IMG/VR virus record: IMGVR_UViG_3300027819_000008
Coordinates: 27,405-91,404 of that record
Direction: 5' to 3' (one strand)
Source: a virus
Taxonomy: Duplodnaviria > Heunggongvirae > Uroviricota > Caudoviricetes
DNA length: 64,000 bases
Under the pieces are notes generated by a model. The model was given only the letters and a program-made list of their open reading frames with translations. It was not told the DNA's origin and did not search any database. Positions 1,748-14,248 of the stretch are shown here, in pieces. The position numbers and the translations under genes are program-made. Within the stretch, counting starts at the first letter, position 1, and each line of letters opens with the position of its first letter.

Positions 1748-3397
1748 CTATATCTTAGGCAACTCAGTCAGGCCAAACTTCCGGGCCACGTCGTTATATG
1801 AAAACAGGAGTCCCATGTGGGGACCAACCGAGAAGTCCACGCGGTAGGGCACGTCCGCCTCCAGGCGCCAGTCGAACGGCAGCGCCGTGCAGCGGCGGTA
1901 CACGAGCATGGCCGTCGGCTCCAGGTACCCAGGCGCACAGTCACCCCAGCCGGAGTCGTGCACGGTGTTGCTGTGCCAGGAGCGGAACGGCTTACCGCCG
2001 GGGCCGGAGCCCCCGTGCAGCCGCCAGCCCGCGGCCTCCGGAAACAGCAGCCCGCGCGCCTCCCACATCGGCGGCACCGCGAGCTGGACGTACTCCCCGT
2101 GGTGCAGCAGCGCGATCATCCACAGGCAGTCCGTGGCGTTCATGGACTGCGTCGGCGTGTTGGCCGCCTTGTGAAAGTTGTGGGACAGCGGTCCCCAGAG
2201 GCGCTTGTCACCGACCTGGAACTTGGGCTTCCCGTCCACGCGGCCCAGGTACCGCACGCCCTCCGGCAGGCCGACCCACCGGCGGCGGCCGTACCCGTCC
2301 TGGCAGTACCCGAGGCGCCCGAGGTGGTCCTGGTCCCACTCGTAGAGCTCCGCCAGCCCCGTGTAGCCGGCGTCGAACGCGGCGGCGAGGCGCTTGGCCT
2401 CGTCGTCCGGCAGCAGCATCCGCGCCTCGTTCCACAGCGTCCCCTGCAGCGCGCGCCACGAGCCCCCGAAGATCTTAAGGAAGAACGTCTGCTTGCCGAC
2501 GGTGTCGCGCTCGTGCGTCCCCTTCTTGTACGTCCCCTCCGGCACGCCGTAGAGGAGCGAGGCCGTCTTGCTGTGGATGTCCTTCCCCTCGCGCAGGTAC
2601 TCGTACGCGATCGGGTCCGGCCGGGCGCAGTACTTCCACGTCAGCATGGCCGCGCGGATGCACGCCTCGGCGCCGGAGATGTCCCAGCGCCACACGCTGC
2701 CGTGCTTCCGCGGGTCCCACACGGCGGCCAGCACGTCCAGCTGCTCCGCGCCCGTCTTCTTGGCCGCGACCGCGGCCTCCACGTCCGGCGTGAGGTGCAC
2801 GGCCCCCTCCCGGGGCACGATGCAGGACTTGATGCCCTGGGCGACCACCTTGTCCGCGCGCTCCGGGATGTTCTGCACCTGGGGGTCCTCGCACGACAGC
2901 CGGGAGGTGCGGAGCGCCCAGTTGTACTTCGTGTGGATCGCGCCGTCGGGGCGCAGTCGGTCGCGCCACGCGCGCAGCCACTTCGCGCGCCCACCCTGCA
3001 GCGACCGGATCTTCATGACGGCGTACACCACCGGGTGGTCGCCCGCGCGGGGGACCTTGATGGACGCGTAGTGCTGCAGGAACTCATCGGCGGTGGACGG
3101 CGTCTCCCCCGCGGCCAGCCGCTGCCCCGTGGGCTCCAGTCCCAGCCCCTGCGCGGAGTACAGGAACTTGGCCAGCGTGGCGGGGTGAATGGAGTCGGCC
3201 TCGGAGTACTTGAGGGTCATGCCGCGCTTCGCGGCCTCGCCCTCCACCAGGGCCTTGTGCGCGGCGAGCTCGGCCCCCCACGCGCGGTCCACCTCGGCCA
3301 GGCGCCGCTGGTCCAGGAACAGACCGGCCCGGCGCAGCTGGGACACCGCCGCATTCGCGGGCACCAGCACGTTGGCGTAATAGCTCCAGAGCTCCAT
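1748..3397 (-). CDS. polA: DNA polymerase I (family A) polymerase domain; C-terminal piece of a split polA
   Basis: Contains motif A region (RTSRLSCEDPQVQNIPER), motif B (RDTVGKQTFFLKIFGGS) and an AANTPTQSMNATD block like Pol I AINAPMQGTAAD. Start is ATG (MELWSYY) at 3397, one nt after the upstream stop (TAGCATG); the track ORF is over-extended to 3496. The N-terminus aligns with the Pol I segment that immediately follows Exo III. Confidence 0.85.
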   Translation of the reverse strand: MELWSYYANVLVPANAAVSQLRRAGLFLDQRRLAEVDRAWGAELAAHKALVEGEAAKRGMTLKYSEADSIHPATLAKFLYSAQGLGLEPTGQRLAAGETPSTADEFLQHYASIKVPRAGDHPVVYAVMKIRSLQGGRAKWLRAWRDRLRPDGAIHTKYNWALRTSRLSCEDPQVQNIPERADKVVAQGIKSCIVPREGAVHLTPDVEAAVAAKKTGAEQLDVLAAVWDPRKHGSVWRWDISGAEACIRAAMLTWKYCARPDPIAYEYLREGKDIHSKTASLLYGVPEGTYKKGTHERDTVGKQTFFLKIFGGSWRALQGTLWNEARMLLPDDEAKRLAAAFDAGYTGLAELYEWDQDHLGRLGYCQDGYGRRRWVGLPEGVRYLGRVDGKPKFQVGDKRLWGPLSHNFHKAANTPTQSMNATDCLWMIALLHHGEYVQLAVPPMWEARGLLFPEAAGWRLHGGSGPGGKPFRSWHSNTVHDSGWGDCAPGYLEPTAMLVYRRCTALPFDWRLEADVPYRVDFSVGPHMGLLFSYNDVARKFGLTELPKI

Positions 3398-3398
3398 G

Positions 3399-3653
3399 CT
3401 AGAAGAACGCCTGCTGCGCCGCGGCGGGCCGGTAGGTCGCGCCCGCCTCGGTGATCTGTCGCTCCAGCGCGGTGAAGTATTGCACGTTGACCTCATGGCA
3501 CTTGAGCGTGTCGGCCGCCACCTCGTTCAGCGTGTACCCCATCTTCTCCACGTACCGGTGAACAGCCGTCCGCTCCGCGGGCATGTGATCCCGCGCGTAC
3601 AGGTACGAGTAGAGCCGGCGCTTCAGGCCAAGCTCCCACCACCGGGACTCCAC
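3399..3653 (-). CDS. small helix-turn-helix-like protein encoded inside the polA-splitting insert
   Basis: C-terminal 60-80 aa look protein-like (YVEKMGYTLNEVAADTLKCHEVNVQYFTALERQI, HTH-like). Candidate GTG start at 3653 follows GGGGA; an alternative ATG lies at 3584. The upstream part of the track ORF 3399..4013 is W/R-rich frame junk. Confidence 0.3.
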   Translation of the reverse strand: MESRWWELGLKRRLYSYLYARDHMPAERTAVHRYVEKMGYTLNEVAADTLKCHEVNVQYFTALERQITEAGATYRPAAAQQAFF

Positions 3654-3852
3654 TCCCCGAGGCAGGGACCCACACGCGAAGTAGAACCTCACCGGCACCC
3701 CCGGAGAGTCTTGGCCAACCCCAAAACGGGGTGTACAACCCCCAAAACGGGCCCGTACGGGGCGATTGGGGGCTTCCCGGTGTGGTTGCACGGGAACCCC
3801 CCTCCCGACCCGCCCAGGGGGAGCCACGGCCGGGCGTGTCGAAATGGCACGA

Positions 3853-5103
3853 TCACAGGTACTCCGCCCGCCGCAGCCGGGCGTCCAGGGCCACCTCCAG
3901 CTCCAGCGTGGCGCAGGCGTCGTGCACCGCCCCACTAGCCACCTGCTCCAGGGGAAGGTCGCGCATCCGTCCCTTGTCCACCTCGGCCCAATACTGGCGC
4001 TTGCCCAGGACATCCACCACGGCCTTCTCCAGGCGCAGGCTCTCGTGCGTCCCGTCGCTGAGGGAGACGAGCGCGAGCATGGCGTCGCGCGTGCGGCGGA
4101 CGCGGTGTGCCCACCCGGGGACGACCAGCCCCTCCTCGTCGAAGTGCCCGTTGAACGCCGTCCGGTCGGCCGCAGAGGTGAAGGCCGGGGTCAGCAGCTC
4201 GCACACCCGCGCGCGGTGCGCGAGCAGCGGCGCGAGCTCCAGCCACGCCCCCTGCGTGAACGACCACGCGACCGCGACGCCGCGCAGGCGGAAGTCCGGG
4301 TGGCACGGGTCGGTGGAGACCTCCTTGCGGCTCGGGAACGCACCCCCGTCAAAGGACTCTATGTCGAAGGCCCACATCGCGCGGTGGCGAGTCAGGCGCT
4401 CGGCGAGCGCGCCCAGCTGGTCCAGCGTGGTGACCACCGTGACGCGCACCGCGGACTGGGGCTCCTGCCCGTGCAGGCGCTCGGCCATCCGCCGCATGTC
4501 GTCGGTGAACTGCGCCGTGAGTTCCGCGCGCCGCGCGGGGTCCGGCACCTGCTGGAGCGACCCGGGGTGTCGGTCCACGAACGCGTCCCGCCCGTCCGGC
4601 GTCCTGATCCACAGCCCGCGCACGCCGCCGAGTCGCTGCCGGGTGTTCCCTGTGACGTGGTGGAGCGGCGCGAGGCCGAGCACGAGCAGCGGGACCCCCG
4701 GGTCGTAGCGCGCGAGGTCGCGGGCCAGGTGGGCCGCGCAGCGCCGAGCCGACTCCTTCCACGCCTTACCCTCGAAGTCGTCCCCGGCCGGCCGGCACCG
4801 CGCGAGGTGCAGGTACGCGACGCGGTCCGGGTCCACGTTCGCGGCCTGGAGCGCCGGGCGCAGCACCCACTGGTCACCCTGCCCGCCCGGTGCGGTGGTC
4901 AGCACGATCAGCTGCGGGTCCTCACAGTGCACCGGGGGGACCTTGCGGTCCGGGGCGTCACTCGGGCACCCACTGCACGGGTTGCCGAGGTCCGCGGGTG
5001 TACGGGGAGTTTGTGGTGCTCCGGCAGTCCGCTGCCGCCGCTTTGGTGCGCGGGCGAAGGCCGGCCGGTCGAACTGAGAGAAGAAAGACGGCTGCTCCGT
5101 CAA
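3853..5103 (-). CDS. UDG-like domain fused to 3'-5' proofreading exonuclease (N-terminal piece of split PolA)
   Basis: Exo I (AFDIESFDGG), Exo II (FNGHFDEE) and Exo III (HDACATLE) motifs are present. The N-terminal half is Cys-rich and resembles family-4 UDG (as in SPO1 polymerase-associated UDG). TTG start at 5103. Ends with a TGA immediately followed by a hairpin-rich insert. Confidence 0.75.
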   Translation of the reverse strand: MTEQPSFFSQFDRPAFARAPKRRQRTAGAPQTPRTPADLGNPCSGCPSDAPDRKVPPVHCEDPQLIVLTTAPGGQGDQWVLRPALQAANVDPDRVAYLHLARCRPAGDDFEGKAWKESARRCAAHLARDLARYDPGVPLLVLGLAPLHHVTGNTRQRLGGVRGLWIRTPDGRDAFVDRHPGSLQQVPDPARRAELTAQFTDDMRRMAERLHGQEPQSAVRVTVVTTLDQLGALAERLTRHRAMWAFDIESFDGGAFPSRKEVSTDPCHPDFRLRGVAVAWSFTQGAWLELAPLLAHRARVCELLTPAFTSAADRTAFNGHFDEEGLVVPGWAHRVRRTRDAMLALVSLSDGTHESLRLEKAVVDVLGKRQYWAEVDKGRMRDLPLEQVASGAVHDACATLELEVALDARLRRAEYL

Positions 5104-5166
5104 GACTTCTTGGGTACCGGCTTGACCCCGACCATCTGCATATCCTGCCGAGACGAGTGCCCGAAG

Positions 5167-5245
5167 CTAATGAGCACCCGAGCCCCCCCCGTTGACTGCG
5201 GACTTGCTGTGCGCACCCCCGAGCCCGAGGTAAATCTTCACCGCG
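5167..5245 (-). repeat. Q-repeat copy A (24-aa micro-ORF VKIYLGLGGAHSKSAVNGGGSGAH)
   Basis: GTG AAG ATT TAC CTC GGG start motif shared with the other Q copies. Nucleotide similarity to copy E over about 70 nt, including a G8 run and GGGTGCTC. Lies between the clamp and exonuclease genes. Confidence 0.5.
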
Positions 5246-5286
5246 GTTTGATACCGACGGCCTGACATACGGCTCGCGTAGTGGCC

Positions 5287-5375
5287 TTATATGACACAAG
5301 GACCCTCGCCTGCAGCTTCACTGCAGTGTGTGTGTGCGTTGTCGTTACCGGCCCCGAGATAAATCTTCACGCCAG
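5287..5375 (-). repeat. Q-repeat copy B (27-aa micro-ORF VKIYLGAGNDNAHTHCSEAAGEGPCVI)
   Basis: Its GTG start overlaps the clamp TGA stop (GTGA), the same coupling geometry as real genes in this genome. Paralogous to copies A, D and E and to the dpdA start. Confidence 0.5.
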
Positions 5376-6590
5376 CAGCATCACGATGTGCTCGAACCGC
5401 TTGTCCGCAGACACGAAGTACGCCGTGGTCCCGGCCCCCGCGGCCGGGAGCCAGAACCGACGGCCGACGACCTCGAGCGCCTCCTTGAGGTACTTGCCAT
5501 TGACCGAGAACGTCGTCGGCTCGCCCTGCACCGCGGCCGGGATCTCCTCCTCGGCGCGCGCGTCGGCCTCGGCCACCGTCAGCTTCAGCGAGTCCCGGCC
5601 GACCTCCCCCTGCACCCGGAACGTCGGGGCGGTGGCGAAGTGCAGCAGCCGCTCGAACGCGGCGGCCAGGTCCCCGGTGACGTCCACCCAGGTTCCCCCG
5701 CCGCGGGCGTCCTCCCGGACCTTCTTGAGGGCGCCGGCGAACCCGGCCGTCGGGAACCCCGCGGCCAGGAGCGACCCGTACACCGCCGCGCGCTCCCCGA
5801 GGAAGAACCACACGGTGGCGTCGCCCTCCAGGCACACGGAGGTCGCGTCGCGGCGGCGCGACCCGAGGCGCTCCAGCAGGTGGTCCGGCAGCAGCAGCCC
5901 ACCCTTCGGCGCGGGTGTGCGGTACTCCTTCGGGGGATTCAGCACCGAGATGCGGAACGTGTCGGTGGACAGCAACAGCCCACCCTCCGACCAGTACACG
6001 CCGCGGAGCGGGGGCTTCGTCTCGTCCCGGCACACCGTGAACATCACACGCTCGAGCTCGCCCCACCACCGCGGGTCCAGCGCCGTGCGTGGGGTCTTCG
6101 GCGCCTCCCGCTGCACGTACAGGGACACGTCCTCGGTGCCCGCGGGCCTGTAGCACCCCAGCTGCGCGCGGAACCTCCCGCCCCGGAGACGAATCGTCCC
6201 CTCGTGGGACTCCAGCACCAGCTCCTCCACGGACGAGTCGTTCAGCGACGTCACGATGCGGCGCAGGTGCGCGGCCGAGAGGGCGAACTCCCCGGGGAAG
6301 GTCCACGGCGTGGTGTGCACCGCGCCGGCGGACCCGGAGTTGGACCGGACCGACGTCCCCTGGAACCAGACCTGCTTGAGCCCGGGCACGAGGTCGCGGT
6401 CGGAGGCGAAGTCGCTCGTCAGCGTGATCGCCGGCAGCAGCTCCTCCACCGGGAGCGTGACCCCGGACCCCGGCTTCTTCTTGGCAGCCTTCGGGGCCTC
6501 CGGCCTGTCATCGTCCAGGAAGGACTGGGTGATCTCGGTCACCCCGGTCTCGCTGGTTACCCGCATCTCCGGCGCCCGCTTCTTGGCCAT
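5367..6590 (-). CDS. dnaN: DNA polymerase III beta sliding clamp
   Basis: Aligns with E. coli DnaN: IRLRGGRFRAQL versus RSGRSRFSLSTL, the YWSEGGLLLSTDTFRISV block, and the C-terminus TTAYFVSADKRFEHIVMLLA versus AAYVVMPMRL. ATG at 6590 overlaps the HNH stop (TAATG); the track ORF is over-extended to 6716. Confidence 0.8.
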   Translation of the reverse strand: MAKKRAPEMRVTSETGVTEITQSFLDDDRPEAPKAAKKKPGSGVTLPVEELLPAITLTSDFASDRDLVPGLKQVWFQGTSVRSNSGSAGAVHTTPWTFPGEFALSAAHLRRIVTSLNDSSVEELVLESHEGTIRLRGGRFRAQLGCYRPAGTEDVSLYVQREAPKTPRTALDPRWWGELERVMFTVCRDETKPPLRGVYWSEGGLLLSTDTFRISVLNPPKEYRTPAPKGGLLLPDHLLERLGSRRRDATSVCLEGDATVWFFLGERAAVYGSLLAAGFPTAGFAGALKKVREDARGGGTWVDVTGDLAAAFERLLHFATAPTFRVQGEVGRDSLKLTVAEADARAEEEIPAAVQGEPTTFSVNGKYLKEALEVVGRRFWLPAAGAGTTAYFVSADKRFEHIVMLLA

Positions 6591-7057
6591 TAAACGTGAC
6601 TCCAGGTTTGTCGTCGGCATATGTAAGAAATCATGACTTGAGAAACCCCATACCGTTTCGCAGCGACGCGCTGGCTGATCAGCCCACGCTTTCCTTTGCC
6701 AAGCCCCGGCCCACACACCCGGCGGATCTCTTTCACAACCGCGGCAGTTAGCTTTTTGGCAGCGCGCCCCTTATAAGTCTTGTCCGCCATGTTGGCGGCT
6801 TGAGTACCAAGGAACAGATGCGTCGGCTCGCCGCATGTTCCGGTATCACAGGTGTGGCAGACTTCCAAACCAACGGGGATAACCCCACGCACCAGAGTCC
6901 AGGCTAGCCTATGAACGAGCCAGCAAGTTCTCTGAAAAGTGACCGTGCCGTAAGCACCCCTCTCGTCATTGCACGCACCTTGCCAGAGCAGGCAGCCATT
7001 TGCAGAACGCTTGAACTTAAGCCAGAAGTCTGCCGGCATACTCGCTCGCTGAGGCAT
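6590..7057 (-). CDS. HNH homing endonuclease (free-standing)
   Basis: HNH core: CLLWQG...GYG...LVHRLAW...HTCDTGTCGEPTHLFLGT. The C-terminal tail is HTH-like. Sits between dpdA and dnaN. Confidence 0.8.
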   Translation of the reverse strand: MPQRASMPADFWLKFKRSANGCLLWQGACNDERGAYGTVTFQRTCWLVHRLAWTLVRGVIPVGLEVCHTCDTGTCGEPTHLFLGTQAANMADKTYKGRAAKKLTAAVVKEIRRVCGPGLGKGKRGLISQRVAAKRYGVSQVMISYICRRQTWSHV

Positions 7058-8011
7058 TTAAAAAAAGGACTTCTGCGTTGCCCGGCGCGACCAAGGACGA
7101 TCCACCCAGCTCTTTTCCAGATCGAGAAAAAATAGAACATTAAGCTCGTCGCGCTTCACGTAGTCCGTGGCCAGCTGCTCCGGCGCGTACCCCTTCCCCT
7201 CCACGTACGCAAGGATCGCGGCCTGCTCGGCCGGGGCGTACGTCTTGAAGTGGGCCCCGTCCTCGCTCAGCTTCGGCGAACGGTCGGAGAAGGACACGTT
7301 GTGCACCTTCCCGCCGAGCGGCACGTAGCAGCCGCCGAAGTTGCCGACCTTGACCCACGACGTGCTATCGACCGAGAACCAGGGATACATCTGCATGAGC
7401 GCGATGCTCGTCAGCCCGAACCCGTGGAAGCGGCGGAGGGGCCGGCCCTCATCGTCGGTCAGCAGCTCCATGGAGCGGTCCAGGGACTTGATGCGGTCCG
7501 CGGACGTCAGCCCCGGAGCGGCCAGCCCGCCGAGCGCGAAGTACTCGGCGTGGTCCATGAGCTTCCGGAGCCACTTGAGGTCCTCGCCCCGGTGGTACGT
7601 GTGGATGAGCTGGACGCCGGACCCCCGCAGCTTCTTCTGGAGGTACGCGTAGTTCTCCCACCCGCGCTCCGCGGCGCGCTCCACCTCGGCCGCGGACGCC
7701 GGCTGCCCCGGCTTCCCCGGGATCACGTCCAGGTTGGCGACGACGGTGAACGCGTCCCGGTTCGCGAGGACGAAGTCCGCGTAGTCGTCCAGGTTGATCT
7801 CCGACCCCTTGGCCCAGGCCGTGAACGCCCCGGAGTCCAGGAACAGGTCCACTGCCGGCTTGCCCCCACCGCTCATGAACACCTCCGCCCACGGCAGCCG
7901 CGCCGGGGTCTCGCGCACGATCGCGTACGAGTGCAGGCGGCGCCGCGCCCCGACGCGGGCCACGTTGGCCTCGCGCGTGCGCTCCAGGCTCCCGGCCAGG
8001 TACACCCTCAT
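7058..8011 (-). CDS. dpdA: DpdA-like DNA 7-deazaguanine transglycosylase (TGT superfamily)
   Basis: LFLDSGAFTAW matches the TGT catalytic TDSGGFQ motif. No zinc-site cysteines, which is typical of DpdA. Co-located with the preQ0 biosynthesis genes. The start MRVYLAGS is duplicated in the Q repeats. Confidence 0.6.
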   Translation of the reverse strand: MRVYLAGSLERTREANVARVGARRRLHSYAIVRETPARLPWAEVFMSGGGKPAVDLFLDSGAFTAWAKGSEINLDDYADFVLANRDAFTVVANLDVIPGKPGQPASAAEVERAAERGWENYAYLQKKLRGSGVQLIHTYHRGEDLKWLRKLMDHAEYFALGGLAAPGLTSADRIKSLDRSMELLTDDEGRPLRRFHGFGLTSIALMQMYPWFSVDSTSWVKVGNFGGCYVPLGGKVHNVSFSDRSPKLSEDGAHFKTYAPAEQAAILAYVEGKGYAPEQLATDYVKRDELNVLFFLDLEKSWVDRPWSRRATQKSFF

Positions 8012-8078
8012 CGCTTCAGCGCCGCCTTCATTACGCTGCTGTTTCTGTCCGCATAGGTAACGAGCAGGCGCACGCCGC

Positions 8079-8145
8079 TCACGCGAAGGACCATCTTCGC
8101 CACCGCTGTACTGTTAGGTGCCCGGCCAGGTACACCCTCACCGCT
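8079..8145 (-). repeat. Q-repeat copy D (20-aa micro-ORF VRVYLAGHLTVQRWRRWSFA; duplicate of the dpdA 5' end)
   Basis: A 24-nt near-identical copy of the dpdA start region (GTGAGGGTGTACCTGGCCGGG), 129 bp upstream of the genuine dpdA ATG. Confidence 0.45.
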
Positions 8146-8192
8146 GTGGCCTGAATCCTAGGAGCCTGCCGAGGGGAACGGACCGGCGATTG

Positions 8193-8295
8193 TCACCGTT
8201 CCCGTACGAAAAGAGCACCCGCCCCCCCCTTGGCGACCACGGACTTCGTGTGGGCCACGTCGTTCTTGCCGGCGCCGAGATACACCTTCACCGGC
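8193..8295 (-). repeat. Q-repeat copy E (32-aa micro-ORF VKVYLGAGKNDVAHTKSVVAKGGAGALFVRER)
   Basis: Its GTG overlaps the folE TGA stop (GTGA). Protein-level and nucleotide-level similarity to copies A and B. Confidence 0.5.
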
Positions 8296-9193
8296 GGATC
8301 AGCGCGAGGAACTCCGCGCGGGTCTCCGGGTGATCGCGGAAGACGCCGCGCATGGCCGACGTGACCATGGTGCTCTCCGGCTGCCGCACCCCGCGCATGA
8401 CCATGCAAAAGTGCGTGGCCTCCACCACGACGGCCACCCCGCGCGGCTCCAGGGCCTGCTCGAGCTCCAGGGCCACCTGCTGCGTCAGGCGCTCCTGCAC
8501 CTGCAGCCGGCGCGCGTACTTTTCCACCACGCGGGACAGCTTGGACACCCCGATGATCTTGGTGGACGGCAGGTACCCCACGTGGGCGCGCCCGAAGAAC
8601 GGCAGCATGTGGTGCTCGCAGTGGCTGACGAACTGGATGTCCCGCGAGATCACGACCTCGTCGGTCAGCCCGTCCTCGAACGTAGTGAGCGCCGGGGTCA
8701 TCGCGTACCCCCCGAACAGCTCCTTCCACGCCCGGGCCACGCGGGCCGGCGTCTCGCGCAGGCCCTCGCGCTTCGGGTCCTCCCCGAGGAACTCGAGCAT
8801 GCGCGTGATGATCTCGCTGCCGGGTTCCTCCTGCTTCTCGTAGGGGTACACGACCCAGTCGCCGGTCTCCTCCACCAGGTAGGTCGGCACCGACCGCGAG
8901 GCCGGGCGGACGTGGAGCACCGCCGTCAGGTGGTCGGGGTAGCGCGCGAGCGTCTCCCCGCTGTCGCAGATGTCGTCCACCACCAGGCACCCGGGCTCCG
9001 GGGTCTCCAGCAGGACCGGCTCGCGACCGCACTGCTGGGCCAGGGCCCGCGCGAGCAGCATGGCGACCGGGACCCCGCCGCTCGGGACCGGGTAGAGCGC
9101 GTCGAAGCGCGCCCCACGCGCGCAGATTGCGCTGGCCAGCTCCTGGGCCAGCAGGTCCAGCTCCGTCCAGGTGACCCGCCGCTGCACCCGCAT
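8288..9193 (-). CDS. folE: phosphoribosyltransferase-like domain fused to GTP cyclohydrolase I (FolE)
   Basis: The C-terminal ~185 aa carry the FolE signature (FVSHCEHHMLPFFGRAHVGYLPSTKIIGVSKLSRVVE...ATHFCMVMRG). The N-terminal ~116 aa look like a type I PRTase (VPSGGVPVAMLLARAL...LVVDDICDSGETL...WVVYPYE). ATG at 9193 overlaps the queE stop (ATGA); the track N-terminus is out-of-frame overlap. Confidence 0.75.
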   Translation of the reverse strand: MRVQRRVTWTELDLLAQELASAICARGARFDALYPVPSGGVPVAMLLARALAQQCGREPVLLETPEPGCLVVDDICDSGETLARYPDHLTAVLHVRPASRSVPTYLVEETGDWVVYPYEKQEEPGSEIITRMLEFLGEDPKREGLRETPARVARAWKELFGGYAMTPALTTFEDGLTDEVVISRDIQFVSHCEHHMLPFFGRAHVGYLPSTKIIGVSKLSRVVEKYARRLQVQERLTQQVALELEQALEPRGVAVVVEATHFCMVMRGVRQPESTMVTSAMRGVFRDHPETRAEFLALIRR

Positions 9194-9969
9194 CAGGCCA
9201 CGCCCAGCATCTTGTGCGTCTGCAGCGACAGCCGCCACTCCGGGTGATCCATCAGGGCCCGGAGGCAGAGCTCGGTGGCGCGCCGGGAGCAGGACATGGG
9301 CTGGACCGTCAGGGAGATCGGCCGGCGCGCGTCGCGCGGGCGCAGGTCCTGGGTCAGGCGCAGGTGCTCGGCGTGCCGGGACAGGAACACCTCGTAGGCC
9401 ACCACGTCGCGCTCGCTGCCGACGATCCACTTGACCTCGTTGGCCTCCGCGAGCACGTGCGGGTGGATCTGCAGGCGCCCGGCCGGCTTCGGCGAGACGC
9501 ACACCCAGTCCCACACGCCGGAGATGGGGTACACCCCGGAGGTCTCCAGCGCGGTCTTGATCCCGTGCCGGTGCAGCGCCGAGGTCAGCGCCCCGCAGTC
9601 GTGCCACAGGGGCTCGCCGCCGGTGACCAGCGCCCAGCGCGGCGGGTGGCCGTTGACGACGTCCCCCACCTGAGACGCGCTGAGGTCGGGCGCCGGAATC
9701 GGCCTACCCTCGTCCCCACCCGACAGCGAGGAGAAATTCTGGTCCCAGCTCTCCGGCGTGTCGCAGAAGATGCACCCGACCGGGCAGCCCTGGAGGCGCA
9801 CGATGGTCATCGGTGTGCCGCAGAGCGAGCCTTCCCCCTGCACGGTGGGGTAAATGCGATTGATCCTGTACCGCGTATAGTCGCGGCGGTTGAGCGGCCA
9901 GTCCGCACCGGAGGGGGCGACCGCGCCGTACTGTGCGGGTGTGAGGACCCGGTCCGCCGCGGGGATCAC
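9193..9969 (-). CDS. queE: 7-carboxy-7-deazaguanine synthase QueE (radical SAM)
   Basis: CPVGCIFC matches the Cys-x3-Cys-x2-Cys radical-SAM motif. LVTGGEPL and LSLQTHKMLG blocks are typical of QueE. Confidence 0.85.
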   Translation of the reverse strand: MIPAADRVLTPAQYGAVAPSGADWPLNRRDYTRYRINRIYPTVQGEGSLCGTPMTIVRLQGCPVGCIFCDTPESWDQNFSSLSGGDEGRPIPAPDLSASQVGDVVNGHPPRWALVTGGEPLWHDCGALTSALHRHGIKTALETSGVYPISGVWDWVCVSPKPAGRLQIHPHVLAEANEVKWIVGSERDVVAYEVFLSRHAEHLRLTQDLRPRDARRPISLTVQPMSCSRRATELCLRALMDHPEWRLSLQTHKMLGVA

Positions 9970-10346
9970 TCACCGTACTCCGCGCGCGACGTGCACGTCT
10001 CGTCGATCACCACCGCCCGAAGCCGGACCCCGGGCAGGTCCACCAGGTGGGCGCGCACGCGCTCGAACAACCACCGCGCGATGTTTTCCGACGTCGGGTG
10101 TCGCATGTTGAGCGTCTCGTTCAGGTAGTGGTGATCCAGGTACTGCTCCACGAGCGGCTGCACCGCGGCCTTGAGGTCCCCGTAGTCCGCCAGCATGCCG
10201 GCCTTGGCCCCGTCCTGCTGCAGGTACGGCCCGACGACGCGGACGCGCCCCCGCCAGGAGTGGCCGTGGAGCCTCTGGCAGCGACCATCGTGGTCCGGCA
10301 GCTTGTGGGCCGCCTCGAACGTGAATTCTTTCTCCAGCACGTACAT
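9966..10346 (-). CDS. queD: 6-carboxytetrahydropterin synthase QueD
   Basis: FEAAHKLP...CQRLHGHSW motif characteristic of PTPS/QueD. 126 aa. Confidence 0.85.
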   Translation of the reverse strand: MYVLEKEFTFEAAHKLPDHDGRCQRLHGHSWRGRVRVVGPYLQQDGAKAGMLADYGDLKAAVQPLVEQYLDHHYLNETLNMRHPTSENIARWLFERVRAHLVDLPGVRLRAVVIDETCTSRAEYGE

Positions 10347-10934
10347 TCACGCACCTCCGTCATGCATGCAGCGCTTCTCGGCCGCGCACCCGCCGTCCGG
10401 CGTCGTCAGGCAGTCCGCGTCCGGTGGGCGGCGCAACCGGCGCCACACCCACAGCGCGAACACGGCCACCGCCGTCACCCACGCCTTGCCGACAACCTGC
10501 CCGGGGAGGTACTGCAGGGACCCGAACGCGAGCGCGAGGAAGAGCGCGCTGTCCACCACGAGGCCGACCGCGTTGGACGCGGCCACCGCGAGCAGCCACC
10601 GGCGGCGCCGCAGCGGGGCGTACACCGCGAGGTCCGCGAGCTCGGACAGCAGGAACGCCGCCCCGCTCGCCAGCGCGAACGCCGGGGACACCACCGCAGA
10701 GCAGAGCGCCCCGAGAACCACAGCGGCCAGGACCCCGCGAAGCCCGACCGCGTCGTGCAGCAGGTCGCGCAGGGTGAACGTCAGGCCGGCGAAGTACACC
10801 CCCGCGGGGGCCAGCAGGCCGAAGCCGACGGGGACCGGGCCGAGGTGCACGATCGCGAGGTTGGCCGCGAAGATGGTCCCGATGAACGCGGCCATCAGGC
10901 CGCTGACCCGACCCGACACCGGCCCGATCCGCAT
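10347..10934 (-). CDS. putative YhhQ/Vut-family queuosine-precursor transporter (membrane)
   Basis: Multi-pass membrane protein containing an ...TFTLRDLLHD... block, positioned between queC and queD. ATG at 10934 lies 11 nt after the queC stop. The upstream part of the track ORF is junk. Confidence 0.45.
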   Translation of the reverse strand: MRIGPVSGRVSGLMAAFIGTIFAANLAIVHLGPVPVGFGLLAPAGVYFAGLTFTLRDLLHDAVGLRGVLAAVVLGALCSAVVSPAFALASGAAFLLSELADLAVYAPLRRRRWLLAVAASNAVGLVVDSALFLALAFGSLQYLPGQVVGKAWVTAVAVFALWVWRRLRRPPDADCLTTPDGGCAAEKRCMHDGGA

Positions 10935-10945
10935 GCCCGGGCCGC

Positions 10946-11623
10946 TCACGCCGCGTACTCCGTCGGGTCCGCGACGCCGGCGAGGTCGAAGGCCTCGCGC
11001 CTCTCGGTACACGTCCCACAGCGCCCGCAGTGGACCGGCCCTCCCTCGTAGCACGACCACGTGGCTGCGAACGGAACCCCGTGGTCCGCACCGACGGCCA
11101 CGACGGCCGCCTTGGTGACGTTGAGGAACGGGGCGTTCAGCCGAATGCCCGGCGCGTAGTGGCACTCGCGCGCGGCACCCTGCATGGCGCGCACGAAGTC
11201 CCCGCGGCAGTCCGGATAGATCGCGTGGTCCCCGGCGTGGGCCGCGTACGCGACCTCCTCCGCGCCCGAGGAGATGGCCCAGCCGATGGCCACGGCCAGC
11301 ATGATCATGTTGCGGTTCGGGACCACCGTCAGCTTCATGGTCTCGTCCGCATAGTGTCCGTGTGGAACCGCGACGTCGTCGCTGGTCTGGGAGGACCCGG
11401 CCAGAAACGGGCGCAGCGCGGTGAGATCGGCCACGCGGTAGGGAACCCCGAGCACGCTGCAGATGGCGCGCGCGGCCTCCAGCTCCTTCCGGTGACGCTG
11501 CCCGTAGTCGATCCCGAGCGGCAGCACCTCGTGTCCGGCACCGCGCAGCATGTAGAGGAGCGTCGTGCTGTCCAACCCGCCGGAATAGATGACCACGGTC
11601 TTCATCGCGCGCTGATCCCCCAT
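10946..11623 (-). CDS. queC: 7-cyano-7-deazaguanine synthase QueC
   Basis: SGGLDS PP-loop motif and a CGRCGTC zinc site near the C-terminus. Confidence 0.9.
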
Positions 11624-11625
11624 TG

Positions 11626-12096
11626 TCAGGAAAAGAACCCCCGCTGCGAGTCCTGCTGCGACACCACCAGGGCCCGCGTGAGCCAGCCGAGCTGCCGGCC
11701 GATCCCCAGGCCCTGCATGGGCCGGAGAAACTTTACCCGGTCACCCATGACCTGAATCAGCGGCACGGCGTACAGGGACCCGGCCAGCAGCGTGACGGTT
11801 GCGCCGGTGGCGACTAGACGCGGAAGGAGCTGCCCGGCTACACCGCTAGCCCAGCGCAGTCGGCCGGCCTTGTCGTACTCCGACAGGACCCGCTCGTACG
11901 GCGCCGTGACCTGCTCCGGGGCCAGCAGCCCGTGGAGCGCCGACACGATGAACCACGGGTGACCACTGCGCTCGGCCCACGCCCGGGCCTTGCGAAACCA
12001 CGGGGACACGTACAGGTCCCGGGCCGGGGCCGGCGAGGAGCGCTTCTGCTTTGCGCACGCGACCAGCACCACGTCCCTCAGCGCGCCACTACCCAT
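11626..12096 (-). CDS. hypothetical protein (first gene of the preQ0 operon)
   Basis: 156 aa, conserved-looking ([16 protein letters not shown]...[11 protein letters not shown]). Follows the terminator that ends the sigma gene. ATG at 12096. Confidence 0.35.
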
Positions 12097-12142
12097 CAAA
12101 CCTACATAACCACCCCGCGGGTATCCCGGCTAGAAATCTAGT

Positions 12143-12192
12143 CAAAAAAAATGCGGGGGAGCCAAAGGGTAAGGACCCCGTGACTCCCCCGC
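12143..12192 (-). terminator. rho-independent terminator after the sigma-like gene (T-run on both strands)
   Basis: On the minus strand: GCGGGGGAG...CUCCCCCGC stem followed by AUUUUUUUU. A T-run is also present on the plus strand. Located directly 3' of the stop at 12216. Confidence 0.6.
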
Positions 12193-12215
12193 GGTGGGAG
12201 GCCGAACCTTTTTTT

Positions 12216-13499
12216 TCAGGCCGGCTTGACGTACTTGCTGGCGATCATCGTGTTGCGACCCTTGAACCGGCAGCCGTAGCGCACGCCGGGCCCGACGTTG
12301 CCGTAGTACCGGAACACCTTGCCCTTGTCCCCCTTGCGCAGCCACTCCGCGCGGCTGCCACCCAGGTACACGACCTCGGTCCCCTTCGGGATGAGCTTCT
12401 CGCCGGCGCGCGGGACGTACTTCCCGCTGTCGATGCGCTCGAACGCCGTCTTGGCCGCCCACTCCTTGCTGCCGCTGCGCTCGGCGGCCGGCTTCTTGGT
12501 GACCTTCGCCGTCTTGGCCGCGTCGGCCTTGGCCTTCTTCGCGGCCTTAGCGGCCTGCTTCTCCGCCTTGGCCTTCTTGTCGGCGTCCGCCTTGGCCTTC
12601 TTATCGGCCTTCACCTTCTCCGCCTTCGCGGCCTTGTCGGCCTTCACCTTCTCCGCCTTCGCGGCCTTGTCGGCCTTGGCCTTGGCCTCGTCGGTCTTGA
12701 CCTTCGTGCTGTCCGCGCCGTTCGCGTCGGCCGCTTCCGCCGCCATGCCCGGCTCCATCGGGAACATCTGGTCCACCGCTCCCATTCGCTCCATCGTCGT
12801 CTCTCCTTTGTTCGGGGTCAACTGCCTCTTATCCACTATATCGAGCGGAGCACCATGAGGGTCGTCACGGTCGAGCGCGGCGCGCACCTGCCCCTCCACG
12901 CGCGACCACGCCAGCCGCAGCCGGGAAATGGGGACCTCGAGCACCTGTGCGAGCACGTGCTCACGCACCGACGCGAACGTTTGCTTGCCGCGCCCGCGAT
13001 GGGTCCACTGCCGGCGGAGCTCCGCGAGGGTTCCCGCCGCGGGTTCCAGGAGCTCGTGCAGCAGCCGGCGCTCCACCTCGGGGAGCAGGCGCTCGGCCTC
13101 CTGCAGTGCGAACTGGACCATCATGGTCCGCAGGCCGTCCTCCCCCACGGTCTCAGCCATGGCCCGGGCGCCGTCACCCAGGGGTTCGTCCAGGCTGAGC
13201 ACGCGCACGCCCCCACCCCCGAACGCGCGGCTGCGCGTGTAGGCCGTGATGCACGCGCGCGAGACCGTGGCCGTCCCCATCCGGCCCAGGTCCTCCGCCG
13301 GCACGCGGTGCCGGTGGCGCCGCCAGTTGCGCCAGAGGTTAAGCAGGCCGTCCTGGATCAGGTCCTCCTGGGACAGGTACGGGTGGTGCGACCCCCGCGC
13401 GCTGGACCCCGTGACGCGCTTGACCCACGGCTTCATCTTGACCAGGTACTGCTCGAACGCGACCTCCTCGTCCCGCGTCGGTGCGAGCTGCGCGCTCAA
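12216..13499 (-). CDS. sigma-70-family-like protein with C-terminal Lys/Ala-rich histone-H1-like repeats and a small C-terminal domain
   Basis: Region-2-like segment (YLSQEDLIQDGLLNLWRNW). Followed by KAKADKAAKAEKVKADKAAKAEK... repeats, then about 85 aa with a globular-looking composition. TTG start at 13499 overlaps the upstream TGA (TTGA). Confidence 0.45.
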   Translation of the reverse strand: MSAQLAPTRDEEVAFEQYLVKMKPWVKRVTGSSARGSHHPYLSQEDLIQDGLLNLWRNWRRHRHRVPAEDLGRMGTATVSRACITAYTRSRAFGGGGVRVLSLDEPLGDGARAMAETVGEDGLRTMMVQFALQEAERLLPEVERRLLHELLEPAAGTLAELRRQWTHRGRGKQTFASVREHVLAQVLEVPISRLRLAWSRVEGQVRAALDRDDPHGAPLDIVDKRQLTPNKGETTMERMGAVDQMFPMEPGMAAEAADANGADSTKVKTDEAKAKADKAAKAEKVKADKAAKAEKVKADKKAKADADKKAKAEKQAAKAAKKAKADAAKTAKVTKKPAAERSGSKEWAAKTAFERIDSGKYVPRAGEKLIPKGTEVVYLGGSRAEWLRKGDKGKVFRYYGNVGPGVRYGCRFKGRNTMIASKYVKPA

Positions 13500-14248
13500 A
13501 GCTGGGCTCCCCCCTTGCCGGTGGCCAGCCCGCGCTTGGTCTTCTTGTCCTCGCTGGGCTTCTGGCTCCCGGCCGTTCGGCACTTCCCGCATCGCCACGC
13601 CTTGGACTTGGTGGGCACGGACGCCTCGTGCCCGCACTCCAGCTCACACCACTTGGATTTACCGCGATCCGTGATGACGCGCTTAACGCTTCGCAGCGGA
13701 CCGTACTTCTTGACCAGCGCGTCGTTGCGATCAGCCAGAGCCTTGGAATCTTTTGGTACCGGCGCGCGCGTGCGCTTGGGAACCGGGACTGAATCCGGCT
13801 CCGGGGCCTGCGGCTTGCTGACGGCCACGCGCCCCGACCCGAGGCACGCCGGACACTTCTCGCCGGGCGACTGCTCGCCGAGCCCGGCGCACTTGGTGCA
13901 CTCCGCGTCCACCGGCACCTGCACCGGCCTGTTCAGCCCAAGCATCTTGTCGATCATGGACTGGGGGCGCCACCCCTCGCGCTGTCCCAGCGCCAGGGCC
14001 GCGCACTCGGGGGAGCAGTAGTTCTGCGTCGTCCGGCCGGACAGGACGAGCTCGGGCACGAACGTGCGCGTGCACGCCGGGACCCCGAAGACCTCGCGCG
14101 CCCGCAGGCAGGACCGGCGCCGCAGCTGGTCCAGCGCGGCCTTCGCCTTGGCCACCCCCTTCTCGTCGCCCACCTTCGTGGACTCCTTCAGCTGTGTCTT
14201 GGCCTGCTTGACGACTTCGCGCTTCACCCGCGCCGCAATCTTGGCCAC
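13496..14248 (-). CDS. zinc-ribbon / DnaJ-type CxxCxGxG zinc-finger protein
   Basis: CTKCAGLGEQSPGEKCPACLGSG and CELECGH...CGKC motifs. Lys-rich N-terminus. Translationally coupled to the sigma-like gene. Confidence 0.4.
   Translation of the reverse strand: MAKIAARVKREVVKQAKTQLKESTKVGDEKGVAKAKAALDQLRRRSCLRAREVFGVPACTRTFVPELVLSGRTTQNYCSPECAALALGQREGWRPQSMIDKMLGLNRPVQVPVDAECTKCAGLGEQSPGEKCPACLGSGRVAVSKPQAPEPDSVPVPKRTRAPVPKDSKALADRNDALVKKYGPLRSVKRVITDRGKSKWCELECGHEASVPTKSKAWRCGKCRTAGSQKPSEDKKTKRGLATGKGGAQL

Follow-up and report, generated by a model that had tools for sequence, protein, structure and literature searches.

A phage gene cluster for 7-deazaguanine DNA modification with a phosphoribosyltransferase-FolE fusion and putative clamp-binding motifs

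The locus described here occupies positions 7058-12096, minus strand, of the window, the 64,000-nucleotide stretch that was analysed, from an uncultivated tailed phage of a groundwater metagenome (genome GC 70%). It encodes a DUF6884 protein, QueC, a VUT/YhhQ-like membrane protein, QueD, QueE, a fusion of a phosphoribosyltransferase (PRTase) domain with FolE, and a zinc-less DpdA; an earlier note on this DNA had described a contiguous minus-strand operon of seven ORFs, all of which we find on that strand and at the same coordinates. Phage structural genes are present elsewhere in the window, and at the nucleotide level the window matched none of the phages in our collection, protein identities being 28-47%. 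The features are:

5367-6590, minus strand: phage sliding clamp, a DnaN-like processivity factor (phrog_947 'DNA polymerase processivity factor', 9.5e-25, full length)
6590-7057, minus strand: HNH homing-type endonuclease (Pfam HNH_3, 1.6e-8)
7058-8011, minus strand: DpdA, DNA guanine/7-deazaguanine transglycosylase, 317 aa (phrog_887, 1.3e-47; C-terminus QKSFF)
8012-8291, minus strand: a tandem pair of degenerate dpdA 5' ends (starts 8291 and 8141), filling the gap between folE and dpdA
8288-8815, minus strand: FolE type 1, GTP cyclohydrolase I, C-terminal domain of the fusion (invariant CEHH...HxC zinc/catalytic residues)
8816-9193, minus strand: PRTase domain, N-terminal in the fusion, about 120 aa, a trimmed Gpt-type 6-oxopurine phosphoribosyltransferase (PRPP motif VVDDICDSGET; base-stacking motif WVVYPYE)
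9193-9969, minus strand: QueE-like radical-SAM 7-carboxy-7-deazaguanine synthase (cluster motif CPVGCIFC; phrog_2076, 3.5e-29)
9966-10346, minus strand: QueD, 6-carboxytetrahydropterin synthase (Pfam PTPS, 2.8e-34; TIGR03367, 100.8 against 89.25)
10347-10934 or 10949, minus strand: VUT/DUF165 (YhhQ-family) polytopic membrane protein, short form of 195-200 aa (Pfam Vut_1, 44.7 bits against 27.2)
10946-11623, minus strand: QueC, 7-cyano-7-deazaguanine (preQ0) synthase (Pfam QueC, 3.6e-59; TIGR00364, 184.3 bits against a cutoff of 150.3)
11626-12096, minus strand: DUF6884 protein, 156 aa, YaaA/DpdC-superfamily fold (Pfam, 2e-41; CxxxK as CAKQK, LSAxxG-like VSALHG, tail QRGFFS)
12144-12192, minus strand: intrinsic terminator of the upstream gene (40-nt GC-rich hairpin, then AUUUUUUUU)

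Matches to curated models lie above cutoff for FolE (residues 126-300 of the fusion; TIGR00063, 236 against 181.6), QueC, QueD and Vut_1, and PHROG families are matched by DpdA and by the QueE-like protein, for which all NCBIfam QueE models stay under cutoff (TIGR04322, 2.6e-39, 135 bits against 200). In public gene calls QueC starts at an internal ATG, giving 219 aa. Together with alignment, these matches bear out the previously claimed full GTP-to-preQ0 route with a zinc-less DpdA in a tailed phage. By homology, FolE, QueD, QueE and QueC would lead from GTP to the free base preQ0, and DpdA, a TGT fold lacking the zinc site, as its single Cys implies, would swap guanine in the phage DNA for a 7-deazaguanine base; its catalytic residues, Asp59 (FLDSGAF) and Asp215 (SVDS), are invariant in the alignment. 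The protein is 32% identical to the DpdA of phage Iggy, which carries dPreQ0 (PMC10484667). The window holds a real phage gene cluster for the replacement of guanine in the phage's own DNA by a 7-deazaguanine base; the pathway and DpdA assignments rest on homology, beyond which functions are proposed from sequence features. The membrane protein, further matched by phrog_4899 (8.8e-37) and, under its cutoff of 50.95, by TIGR00697 (34.7 bits), has five or six hydrophobic segments and phage homologues annotated VUT/DUF165, and is a putative importer of preQ0 or a precursor. The earlier note had singled it out, but phage preQ0 clusters with YhhQ have been published before (Hutinet 2019, PMC6884629; CAjan, PMC10484667).

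As had been noted, the operon follows a strong terminator, a 40-nt hairpin with U8 that a simple terminator scan did not pick up; the 126-nt stretch around it (12100-12225, minus strand) folds at -62.1 kcal/mol (z = -4.12), and none of 200 shuffles was equally stable. The proposed coupling of genes by ATGA/GTGA overlaps holds in part: GTGA joins queD to queE and possibly queC to yhhQ, but folE and dpdA are uncoupled, with a 276-nt gap (8012-8287), and further junctions read TGATG (queE/folE), TGAATG (yhhQ/queD) and TAAATG (dpdA/HNH). The dpdA 5' copies in this gap were recognised by a pattern search (5 matches against 0.3 expected) and by alignment; their GC3 is 0.71-0.79 against 0.93 for genes. 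In a relative folE and dpdA are adjacent, and the first copy and the folE stop share a GTGA, resembling an ancestral coupled dpdA start. The copies are probably rearrangement relics rather than functional parts. Directly downstream of dpdA, where the operon had been said to end, lies the HNH gene, with a GC of 56% and a GC3 of 0.59 against about 0.93 in its neighbours; dpdA adjoins the clamp gene directly in two genomes of our comparison (L001 and L002), and the HNH gene is a recent insertion between the two, outside the pathway.

[quoted passage not shown] NP1-like, VpKK5-like and Stenotrophomonas phages carry the same PRTase-FolE fusion, and CAjan has yhhQ in its cluster (PMC10484667). The window differs in gene order (queC-yhhQ-queD-queE-folE), in the extra DUF6884 gene heading the operon, in the dpdA relics between folE and dpdA, in the HNH insertion and in its GC of 70%. 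Fusion and transporter are common or already known; several other features of the cluster are without any description in the searchable literature.

The fusion gene (8288-9193, minus strand) does carry the PRTase-like domain that had been claimed: the peptides VVDDICDSGETL and VVYPYE are present, and the domain matches Pribosyltran above cutoff (27.0 against 26.3) and PRK09177 (4e-8, residues 5-123). It had been called unusual, but 39 phage records span at least 80% of the fusion in tblastn (Nipunavirus NP1/PaMx25/Quinobequin-P09, Vibrio VpKK5, and Stenotrophomonas, Xanthomonas and Sphingomonas phages), and about 115 of the best 120 database homologues share its architecture of about 300 aa. 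We find this architecture in more than 100 metagenomic proteins and, annotated as plain FolE, in about 30 isolated phages. All 34 matches of the domain in isolated phages occur with FolE, 30 of them fused and 4 adjacent, and a stand-alone copy is located after queD-queE. With E. coli Gpt (xanthine-guanine PRTase) and archaeal GpT/HGXPRT the domain shares the fold and the full-length motif order (PPi loop, DDxxD(S/T)GxT, Lys/Arg before the hood, W-x-x-x-P-W/Y-D/E), conserving DDxxDSGxT, W113/P117/E119 and D77, the equivalent of Gpt Asp92; it is about 25 residues shorter, without the beta-hairpin and the flexible catalytic loop, and in the window lineage Ser or Thr replaces the PPi-loop Arg that the family consensus has (VPRGG). 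Its activity and substrate are predicted.

The first gene, previously listed as hypothetical, belongs to DUF6884 in the DpdC/YaaA superfamily. Pfam DUF6884 has been reported to match DpdC (10.1101/2025.02.24.639861), which converts dPreQ0 in DNA to dADG (PMC10164549). PADLOC DpdC matches are consistent (1e-4 to 7e-9), the best PADLOC match being an uncharacterised candidate family; the protein is about half as long as DpdC, and the match covers the DpdC core only (positions 47-103 of 312). DUF6884 genes are embedded in the 7-deazaguanine clusters of at least four phage lineages (that of the window, a gut-virus lineage, Fusobacterium phage phiFN37 and L082). The bacterial Dpd system of Salmonella Montevideo (DpdA/DpdB/DpdC) has a DpdA-type transglycosylase with the same catalytic Asp pair, and in such systems preQ0 genes and YhhQ are often nearby (PMC10164549; 10.1101/2025.02.24.639861). 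The window, in which the DUF6884 protein could fill the DpdC role, lacks the DpdB ATPase, the restriction genes dpdD-K and the structural zinc site in DpdA; its system is offensive, serving phage self-protection, whereas Dpd is a restriction-modification system.

The clamp gene, which matches Pfam DNA_pol3_beta_3 under cutoff (2.7e-4), is syntenic with annotated clamps in L001 and Iggy. Clamp-binding-like motifs end both DpdA (QKSFF) and the DUF6884 protein (QRGFFS), the only two such C-termini among about 99 composition-supported ORFs of the window, and the window polymerase carries a matching motif at its N-terminus (MTEQPSFF). The flavour of the motif co-varies by lineage with the polymerase N-terminus, as KQNRLF, QQRRLF and MTQKGLF in the gut lineage and QELF and GLFW in Iggy. 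Among distinct DpdA C-termini, Qxx[LF]F occurs in 16 of the 18 that have a clamp gene nearby and in 1 of the 16 that have none (Fisher 2e-6, a test that ignores kinship, the 'no clamp nearby' class depending on flank length and tblastn sensitivity). As in the QL[SD]LF-class beta-clamp motifs of bacterial polymerases and repair proteins, these are short terminal peptides, with Gln and then a hydrophobic/aromatic pair, on the polymerase and DNA-acting accessory enzymes of genomes encoding their own clamp; the variants, whose binding is putative, are QxSFF in the window lineage, QxRLF or QELF elsewhere and G[LM]FW on polymerases.

What can the cluster be expected to do? The preQ0 biosynthetic genes are all common to the queuosine pathway, which would allow a role in tRNA, as queuosine or preQ supply to the host; we consider this highly improbable, since the transglycosylase is of DpdA type, with no Pfam TGT match, zinc site or PUA domain, the characterised enzymes most closely related to it act on DNA, and its gene sits between replication genes. 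For the PRTase domain we tentatively prefer, at somewhat below even chance, a recycling of DpdA-released guanine toward GTP. DpdA would release one guanine per base inserted, and the domain would turn it, with PRPP, into GMP. This would clear away guanine, which the behaviour of TGT enzymes leads one to expect as a competitor of preQ0 at DpdA, and return purine to the GTP pool on which FolE draws. Gpt Asp92 and HGPRT Asp137 act on the purine N7 by an established mechanism, and 7-deazaguanines have no N7; the equivalent aspartate is more than 90% conserved here, which makes guanine the likelier substrate than preQ0. The earlier note had the idea that a purine or preQ0 base could be channelled into the nucleotide pool; in the form that preQ0 (or CDG) and PRPP yield a 7-deazaguanine nucleotide for the (d)NTP pool and polymerase incorporation, or for another purpose, this seems unlikely, and DpdA, which uses the free base, would compete with such an enzyme. 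It has a precedent in tubercidin and toyocamycin biosynthesis, where, compared by description, a purine-type PRTase is likewise encoded with FolE/QueD/QueE(/QueC): TubE has demonstrated activity on CDG and PRPP, and ToyH is proposed for preQ0 (PMC6112128). TubE (194 aa), however, stands alone at full size, and its antibiotic cluster also encodes GMP-reductase-like tailoring enzymes, of which the window cluster has none; nor does the latter come with any such partner, as no kinase, reductase or other nucleotide-processing gene accompanies the window cluster. The restriction of the domain to FolE/que neighbourhoods in isolated phages also favours this idea, as does a stand-alone version adjoining FolE in Flavobacterium immuto phages, where guanine is fully replaced (345,000 fdPreQ1 per 10^6 nt); these phages have a DpdA3 enzyme, which Cui 2023 ties to complete replacement, yet the same study placed insertion after replication in every phage known to be modified (PMC10516641). 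The missing flexible loop and the substituted PPi-loop Arg suggest that the domain may be a weak catalyst or a mere ligand binder. We give little credence, however, to a role other than transferase, in which the domain would bind PRPP, GMP, guanine or (p)ppGpp as a sensor or scaffold and so regulate or assemble the FolE decamer. Across 50 diverged fusions there is little or no variation in the acidic pair that binds PRPP, in the 5'-phosphate loop or in the base-stacking Trp/Pro/Glu motif, and the domain of about 120 aa is abundant on its own (1139 stand-alone representatives), as would be expected of an enzyme more than of a regulatory module specific to FolE.

For the DUF6884 protein, membership in the Pfam family of DpdC and occurrence within 7-deazaguanine clusters point to dADG, in place of dPreQ0, as a possible final base. 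It may act on preQ0 already in DNA, most simply by nitrile hydration to dADG, a proposal we hold with reserve. A somewhat weaker case can be made for a YaaA/YfjM-like DNA-lesion-binding or base-flipping factor, which might, for example, deal with abasic or covalent intermediates that DpdA leaves behind; dPreQ0 would then remain the final modification. Among solved structures YaaA, an oxidative-stress protein that binds DNA, has the nearest fold; YfjM, itself of DUF6884, was recovered with abasic and RNA-base lesions (PMC11701544); and cluster relatives without DUF6884, such as Iggy and CAjan, carry dPreQ0 (PMC10484667, PMC6884629). Moreover, most phage DUF6884 genes (Mycobacterium, Microbacterium, Caulobacter phages) lie outside the phage groups giving FolE/DpdA matches; the one such neighbourhood read, in Caulobacter W2, holds annotated hypothetical proteins only. 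Besides the shared Pfam family, the invariant Cys-x3-Lys, a plausible nucleophile for nitrile chemistry, and the repeated insertion between queC, queD and dpdA in unrelated phages argue against this role. As to the terminal motifs, they may reflect shared DpdA ancestry or another partner, with modification uncoupled from the clamp, which we regard as rather unlikely. Many motif-bearing DpdAs are related, so that the two-by-two test overcounts, QKSFF departs from the bacterial QL[SD]LF consensus, and in the searchable literature we found no paper that links DpdA to a clamp, nor any that describes this kind of motif on a DNA base-modifying transglycosylase. However, the unrelated DUF6884 protein has the lineage-specific flavour of DpdA in two lineages, the polymerase, a canonical clamp client, has it at its N-terminus, and DpdAs with no clamp gene nearby are without the motif.

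Overall, we consider it probable that the region is the DNA-modification module of the phage, built on the preQ0 pathway and DpdA, to which guanine recycling, a DpdC-like action of DUF6884 and clamp docking are proposed additions. The motifs of DpdA and DUF6884, the matching polymerase motif and the proximity of dpdA to the clamp gene suggest that modification is coupled to replication: with roughly even odds, DpdA and DUF6884 would dock on the phage's own clamp through their C-terminal QxxFF and the polymerase through its N-terminal one. With the clamp as their common platform, modification would proceed along with replication, and a DpdB-like ATPase would not be needed.

Which modified base does this operon specify, and by what route? 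The seven ORFs listed in the earlier note between 12096 and 7058 are indeed all encoded on the minus strand, show a coding-type composition (GC3 0.87-0.97) and could be assigned to families by curated models. In their order from 12096 to 7058, and followed by the HNH gene that had been placed at the operon's end, they are:

First gene, minus: DUF6884 protein (Pfam 2e-41, full-length match)
Second gene, minus: QueC (TIGR00364, 184 bits against a cutoff of 150)
Third gene, minus: VUT/YhhQ-family membrane protein (Pfam Vut_1, 44.7 against 27.2 bits)
Fourth gene, minus: QueD (TIGR03367, 100.8 against 89.25)
Fifth gene, minus: QueE-like radical-SAM enzyme (PHROG 3.5e-29; below the cutoff of the NCBIfam QueE models)
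8288-9193, minus: 301-aa fusion, with a PRTase part at residues 5-123 (xanthine PRTase PRK09177, 4e-8; Pfam Pribosyltran, 27.0 against 26.3) and a FolE part at residues 126-300 (TIGR00063, 236 against 181.6)
Seventh gene, minus: DpdA (phrog_887, 1.3e-47; no Pfam match)
6590-7057, minus: HNH gene downstream of dpdA

The strong terminator said to precede the operon was recovered by RNA folding as a 40-nt hairpin followed by U8 (z = -4.1); a simple terminator scan missed this long hairpin and flagged two weak sites only. Most of the junctions described as coupled are tight, with the exception of folE and dpdA, which lie 276 nt apart. Neither sigma-70 promoters in 6400-12600 (promoter scan) nor a preQ1 or other riboswitch or RNA family in 5000-13000 (Rfam, E <= 1) were detected. 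Upstream of the operon, the gene at 12216-13637 (minus) has a product of 473 aa that combines a long Lys/Ala-rich repeat, KAEKVKADKAAKAEKVKADKKAKADADKKAKAEK..., with a weak match to sigma-70 region 2 (7e-4, below cutoff) and may bind DNA as a phage sigma-like or histone-like protein. The source is a tailed phage known from metagenome contigs only, with a GC content of about 70% throughout the window, in which head, tail and replication proteins are encoded. Its exact DUF6884 protein is also present on a 70-kb contig of the groundwater metagenome assembly GCA_900218215.1. The phage has no close cultured relative: the whole operon, run by megablast against 50,697 phage records, matched none of them.

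Family matches, the presence of structural and replication genes, and synteny with known clusters place the region in group 2 of Hutinet 2019, the phage preQ0 and DpdA modification clusters, of which it is a new divergent member. The reading of a GTP-to-preQ0 pathway was correct, with matches to FolE, QueD, a QueE-like protein and QueC; the GTP cyclohydrolase I (FolE type 1) passes the curated equivalog cutoff and carries the Cys/His/Cys zinc ligands. QueC is of the plain form (219-225 aa) without a Gat domain, the QueF-type matches in the cluster are only weak overlaps of the FolE T-fold, and no Gat-QueC, ArcS, QueF or QueF-L, the enzymes of the dG+ or dPreQ1 route, nor any further candidate ORF was found in 6500-12100. 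The cluster thus has no enzyme for dG+ or dPreQ1, and the modified base is predicted to be dPreQ0, or dADG if DUF6884 acts like DpdC.

The membrane protein, of the VUT/DUF165 family, is short (195-200 aa) and polytopic by its hydrophobic segments, but does not reach the equivalog cutoffs for preQ0/preQ1 transporters (TIGR00697, 34.7 against 50.95; PRK11212, 27.9 against 252), so that a queuosine precursor as its substrate is putative and suggested by gene context only. It had been singled out as unusual, yet YhhQ homologs in phage clusters were reported in 2019 (PMC6884629) and the yhhQ of phage CAjan adjoins queC (PMC10484667), making this an already known feature.

The fusion of a PRTase-like domain to FolE is genuine yet common. 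A profile built from 27 N-terminal domains of such fusions spans XGPRT (Gpt) of E. coli and of Yersinia from end to end (E 1e-11 to 1e-13) and matches the Pyrococcus purine PRTase at 3e-14, bearing out the proposed PRTase fold. The PRPP-binding motif is present as LVVDDICDSGET, with D73 and D74 invariant and D77, G79 and T81 at least 90% conserved; the base-stacking motif WVVYPYE aligns to WIEQPWD of Gpt, with W113 and P117 invariant and E119 at least 90% conserved. In a set of 50 diverged fusions, little or no variation is seen in the PPi-loop glycines, the DD pair, the D-S-G-x-T loop and W-x3-P-(W/Y)-E. At about 120 aa, compared with 152 aa in Gpt, the domain lacks in the profile alignment the flexible catalytic loop (loop II), carried in Gpt by a segment of about 25 residues that follows the second helix and precedes the PRPP strand. 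The PPi loop, SRGG in Gpt and VPRGG in the family consensus, reads PSGG or PTGG in the window and its closest relatives, where the Arg is replaced by Ser or Thr.

The fusion is not the rarity it had been taken for: it is matched over at least 80% of its length in 39 phage records, among them Nipunavirus NP1, PaMx25, Quinobequin-P09, Vibrio VpKK5 and Stenotrophomonas, Xanthomonas, Sphingomonas and Variovorax phages, all with the protein annotated merely as GTP cyclohydrolase. Among the best 120 database homologs, about 115 measure 290-330 aa, with a query coverage of 88-100%. The PRTase domain alone retrieves 1139 cluster representatives, most of which are proteins of 115-150 aa that stand alone, and one such metagenomic mini-PRTase lies directly 3' of queD-queE; four contigs were looked up for stand-alone or 561-aa matches, three of them (L088, L089 and L090) short and of partial context. 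As the domain is fused to FolE in 30 of the 34 matches from isolated phages and adjoins it in the other four (Flavobacterium immuto phages), we regard the mini-PRTase as a dedicated accessory of phage 7-deazaguanine clusters. We found no published description of it, the term "phosphoribosyl" being absent from the key papers on these clusters. On a 58-kb metagenomic contig (L091, 5001-6686), a 561-aa PRTase-FolE fusion has its FolE split by an intein with an HNH domain, as judged from Pfam Intein_splicing and HNH_3 matches between the two FolE halves.

What could a PRTase contribute to a GTP cyclohydrolase? DpdA frees one guanine per base inserted (PMC10164549), and a Gpt-type domain would convert this guanine, with PRPP, to GMP. 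The analogy with TGT enzymes predicts that free guanine rivals preQ0 at DpdA, so the PRTase would both remove a competitor and, through GMP, restock the GTP pool on which FolE draws, which would provide a rationale for fusing the two. The main rival reading is that the domain couples a 7-deazaguanine base to PRPP, in the manner of TubE, which joins CDG to PRPP, or of ToyH, proposed to use preQ0 (PMC6112128); TubE gives this reading a biochemical precedent. The aspartate equivalent to Gpt Asp92 and HGPRT Asp137, however, is more than 90% conserved in the fusion domains. In the established mechanism this aspartate acts on purine N7, so its conservation speaks for a true purine as substrate rather than a 7-deaza base. 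With its flexible loop missing, the domain may also be purely regulatory. Guanine recycling is the reading we tentatively favor for the fusion PRTase domain, though at less than even odds.

The first gene, entered as hypothetical in the earlier note, encodes a full-length member of DUF6884, a family described by Pfam as YaaA-like with CxxxK and LSAxxG motifs (PMC11701544); the window protein carries CAKQK and VSALHG and keeps the invariant family residues. DpdC, which makes dADG from dPreQ0 in DNA without needing DpdA or DpdB (PMC10164549), was assigned to Pfam DUF6884 in a genome-mining study (10.1101/2025.02.24.639861) and elsewhere to the related DUF328/YaaA family (PMC12839542). With 156 aa the window protein is about half the size of DpdC (about 310 aa), and the PADLOC DpdC model matches it partially, residues 18-74 to positions 47-103 of 312 (E 2.6e-4). 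DUF6884 is co-encoded with dpdA and preQ0 genes: it heads the window operon, adjoins queC, dpdA or yhhQ elsewhere, and lies inside 7-deazaguanine clusters of at least four unrelated lineages:

Lineage 1: the window and its relative L002
Lineage 2: a large family of gut viral contigs of about 55 kb (L034-type), polA-DUF6884-queC-queD-queE-folE-yhhQ-dpdA-clamp
Lineage 3: Fusobacterium phage phiFN37, dpdA-DUF6884-yhhQ
Lineage 4: viral contig L082, queC-DUF6884-queD

The matches in isolated phages, however, fall mostly in Mycobacterium, Microbacterium and Caulobacter phages, mostly outside the groups that gave FolE and DpdA matches, and the single neighborhood read among these, that of Caulobacter W2, is annotated with hypothetical proteins only. 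Since most isolated-phage DUF6884 genes lie outside FolE- and DpdA-yielding groups, we put forward a DpdC-like, dADG-forming role tentatively, as possible but somewhat short of probable; the main alternative is a YaaA/YfjM-like lesion handler. The second-best fold match of DUF6884 is AF0587 (PDB 2q07), which may be an ArcS-core-like protein; a literature search on AF0587 found nothing relevant.

The cultured phage phiFN37 (L084, OR492271.1) carries at 5706-8015 a minimal, salvage-type module including dpdA, DUF6884 and yhhQ, with no preQ0 synthesis genes within 7 kb on either side; its first gene, ahead of dpdA, is annotated as ParB-like and matches the PADLOC type II methyltransferase model. 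Contig L082 (88 kb) has at 3767-6912 two tandem DpdA-like paralogs followed by queC, a divergent DUF6884-like ORF with the motif CSSRK, queD, queE and folE, and this cluster adjoins a portal-like gene.

Phage DpdAs can be aligned to the window DpdA beginning at its first residue, and its general acid/base D59 (FLDSGAF), nucleophile D215 (SVDS) and G161-G162 of the Gly-Gly loop are invariant in the alignment; in the bacterial enzyme (bDpdA), the acid/base and nucleophile aspartates are D95 and D256, accompanied by a Gly-Gly substrate loop (PMC10164549). Unlike bacterial DpdA and TGTs, which have a structural zinc site, the window protein has a single Cys in 317 aa and thus lacks such a site, as do the aligned phage relatives, which argues against membership in the bacterial bDpdA subfamily. 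A phmmer search against PDB sequences gave no match even at E <= 1. A start at Met46, preceded by GGAGG, with MRVYLAG as a mere repeat copy, was rejected, as homologs align from residue 1 and LYxA is conserved.

The dpdA gene lies just upstream of those for a family A polymerase and a DnaN-like sliding clamp (5367-6590; phrog_947, 9.5e-25), an arrangement shared with a Stenotrophomonas phage and with Iggy, a cultured phage with dPreQ0. The polymerase is apparently split in two genes within 1748-5103 (minus), with a mini-DpdA ORF between:

3853-5103, minus: UDG-like and 3'-5' exonuclease gene
1748-3496, minus: polymerase-domain gene

In L002, DUF6884 follows the exonuclease gene, unlike in the window. 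DpdA ends in QKSFF* and DUF6884 in QRGFFS*; of the roughly 99 window ORFs supported by composition, no others have a Qxx[LF]F-like ending. The product of the polymerase exonuclease gene starts with MTEQPSFF. From lineage to lineage these motifs vary together: the gut-virus family has a flavor of its own (DpdA KQNRLF, DUF6884 QQRRLF, polymerase MTQKGLF), as have the Stenotrophomonas- and Iggy-like phages (DpdA QELF or QMELF, polymerase MRxDAxG(L/M)FW). Among distinct DpdA C-termini from the fetched loci, a Qxx[LF]F ending occurs in 16 of 18 with a clamp gene detected nearby but in 1 of 16 without (Fisher 2e-6, with related DpdAs counted as independent). This pattern is that expected of clamp-binding peptides of the QL[SD]LF class, and it points to possible work at the replication fork by DpdA and, in phages that carry it, DUF6884. 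Bacterial DpdA requires the DpdB ATPase; a phage DpdA held at the clamp would need no such partner. No link between DpdA and a sliding clamp was found in the searchable literature.

The region also bears scars of rearrangement. Between folE and dpdA, the dpdA 5' end is found twice more in degenerate, tandem form (8012-8291, minus; GGTGA[A/G]GGTGTA[T/C]CT..., peptides VKVYLGAGKND... and VRVYLAGHL...), the first overlapping the folE stop as GTGA; their GC3 of 0.71-0.79 suggests decaying relics. Two more dpdA-like 5' fragments (VKIYLGAG... and VKIYLGLG...) occupy the gap between clamp and exonuclease genes (5104-5371, minus), the first again overlapping a stop codon, that of the clamp, as GTGA. 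For the repeats at 8291, 8141, 5371 and 5242, decay of dpdA-like 5' ends is a better explanation than a DNA motif with a regulatory or start-associated function. Inside the first relic, downstream of folE, a weak terminator-like hairpin with a T-rich tail (8219-8236, minus) may partly insulate dpdA transcriptionally from the biosynthetic genes. In the mini-DpdA ORF (3399-3698, minus; 99 aa), which lacks the catalytic barrel, the first 35 or so residues of a DpdA-like protein are joined to the last 62 or so (BLASTP 2e-10 to DpdA). The ORF ends in QQAFF, which resembles the clamp motif, and its GC3 of 0.90 is gene-like; instead of a dead relic, it may be a regulator or clamp-binding peptide that is expressed. 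L002, the closest relative (79% identity in FolE, from the same groundwater study), carries a 71-aa analog at 3686-3901, between clamp and polymerase genes. The HNH gene, with 56% GC in a 70% GC genome and a GC3 of 0.59 against about 0.93 in its neighbors, separates the dpdA-clamp pair that adjoins in relatives; it looks like a recent homing-endonuclease insertion outside the pathway, and its acquisition may be linked to the nearby duplications.

Taken together, these features allow a scenario in which modification is coupled to replication, tethered to the clamp and served by a closed loop of purine use. Their C-terminal Qxx[LF]F peptides would let DpdA and a small DUF6884 enzyme of DpdC-like function ride the phage's own clamp, a tethering that would replace the DpdB ATPase required by bacterial DpdA; loop-less mini-Gpt PRTases, fused to or adjoining FolE, would return the displaced guanine to GTP for preQ0 synthesis, and the end product in the window phage would be dADG. 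As a whole we consider this conjunction unlikely.

While the cluster itself is one more example of a known anti-restriction strategy, the dedicated loop-less Gpt domain, the DpdC-family DUF6884 gene and the clamp-binding-like tails are undescribed in the searchable literature, and they extend to many other phages. An extension of about 120 aa in the FolE of roughly 30 sequenced phages and many metagenomic ones has been hidden under the annotation "GTP cyclohydrolase"; if it is a guanine-recycling PRTase, it would link base excision to precursor supply. For phages that make dADG without a recognized enzyme, the small DpdC-like protein recurring in phage clusters is a candidate source. Finally, the clamp-binding-like tail, present also on the studied DpdA of Iggy, offers a testable answer to how phage DpdA may reach guanines in duplex DNA without a DpdB-like partner.
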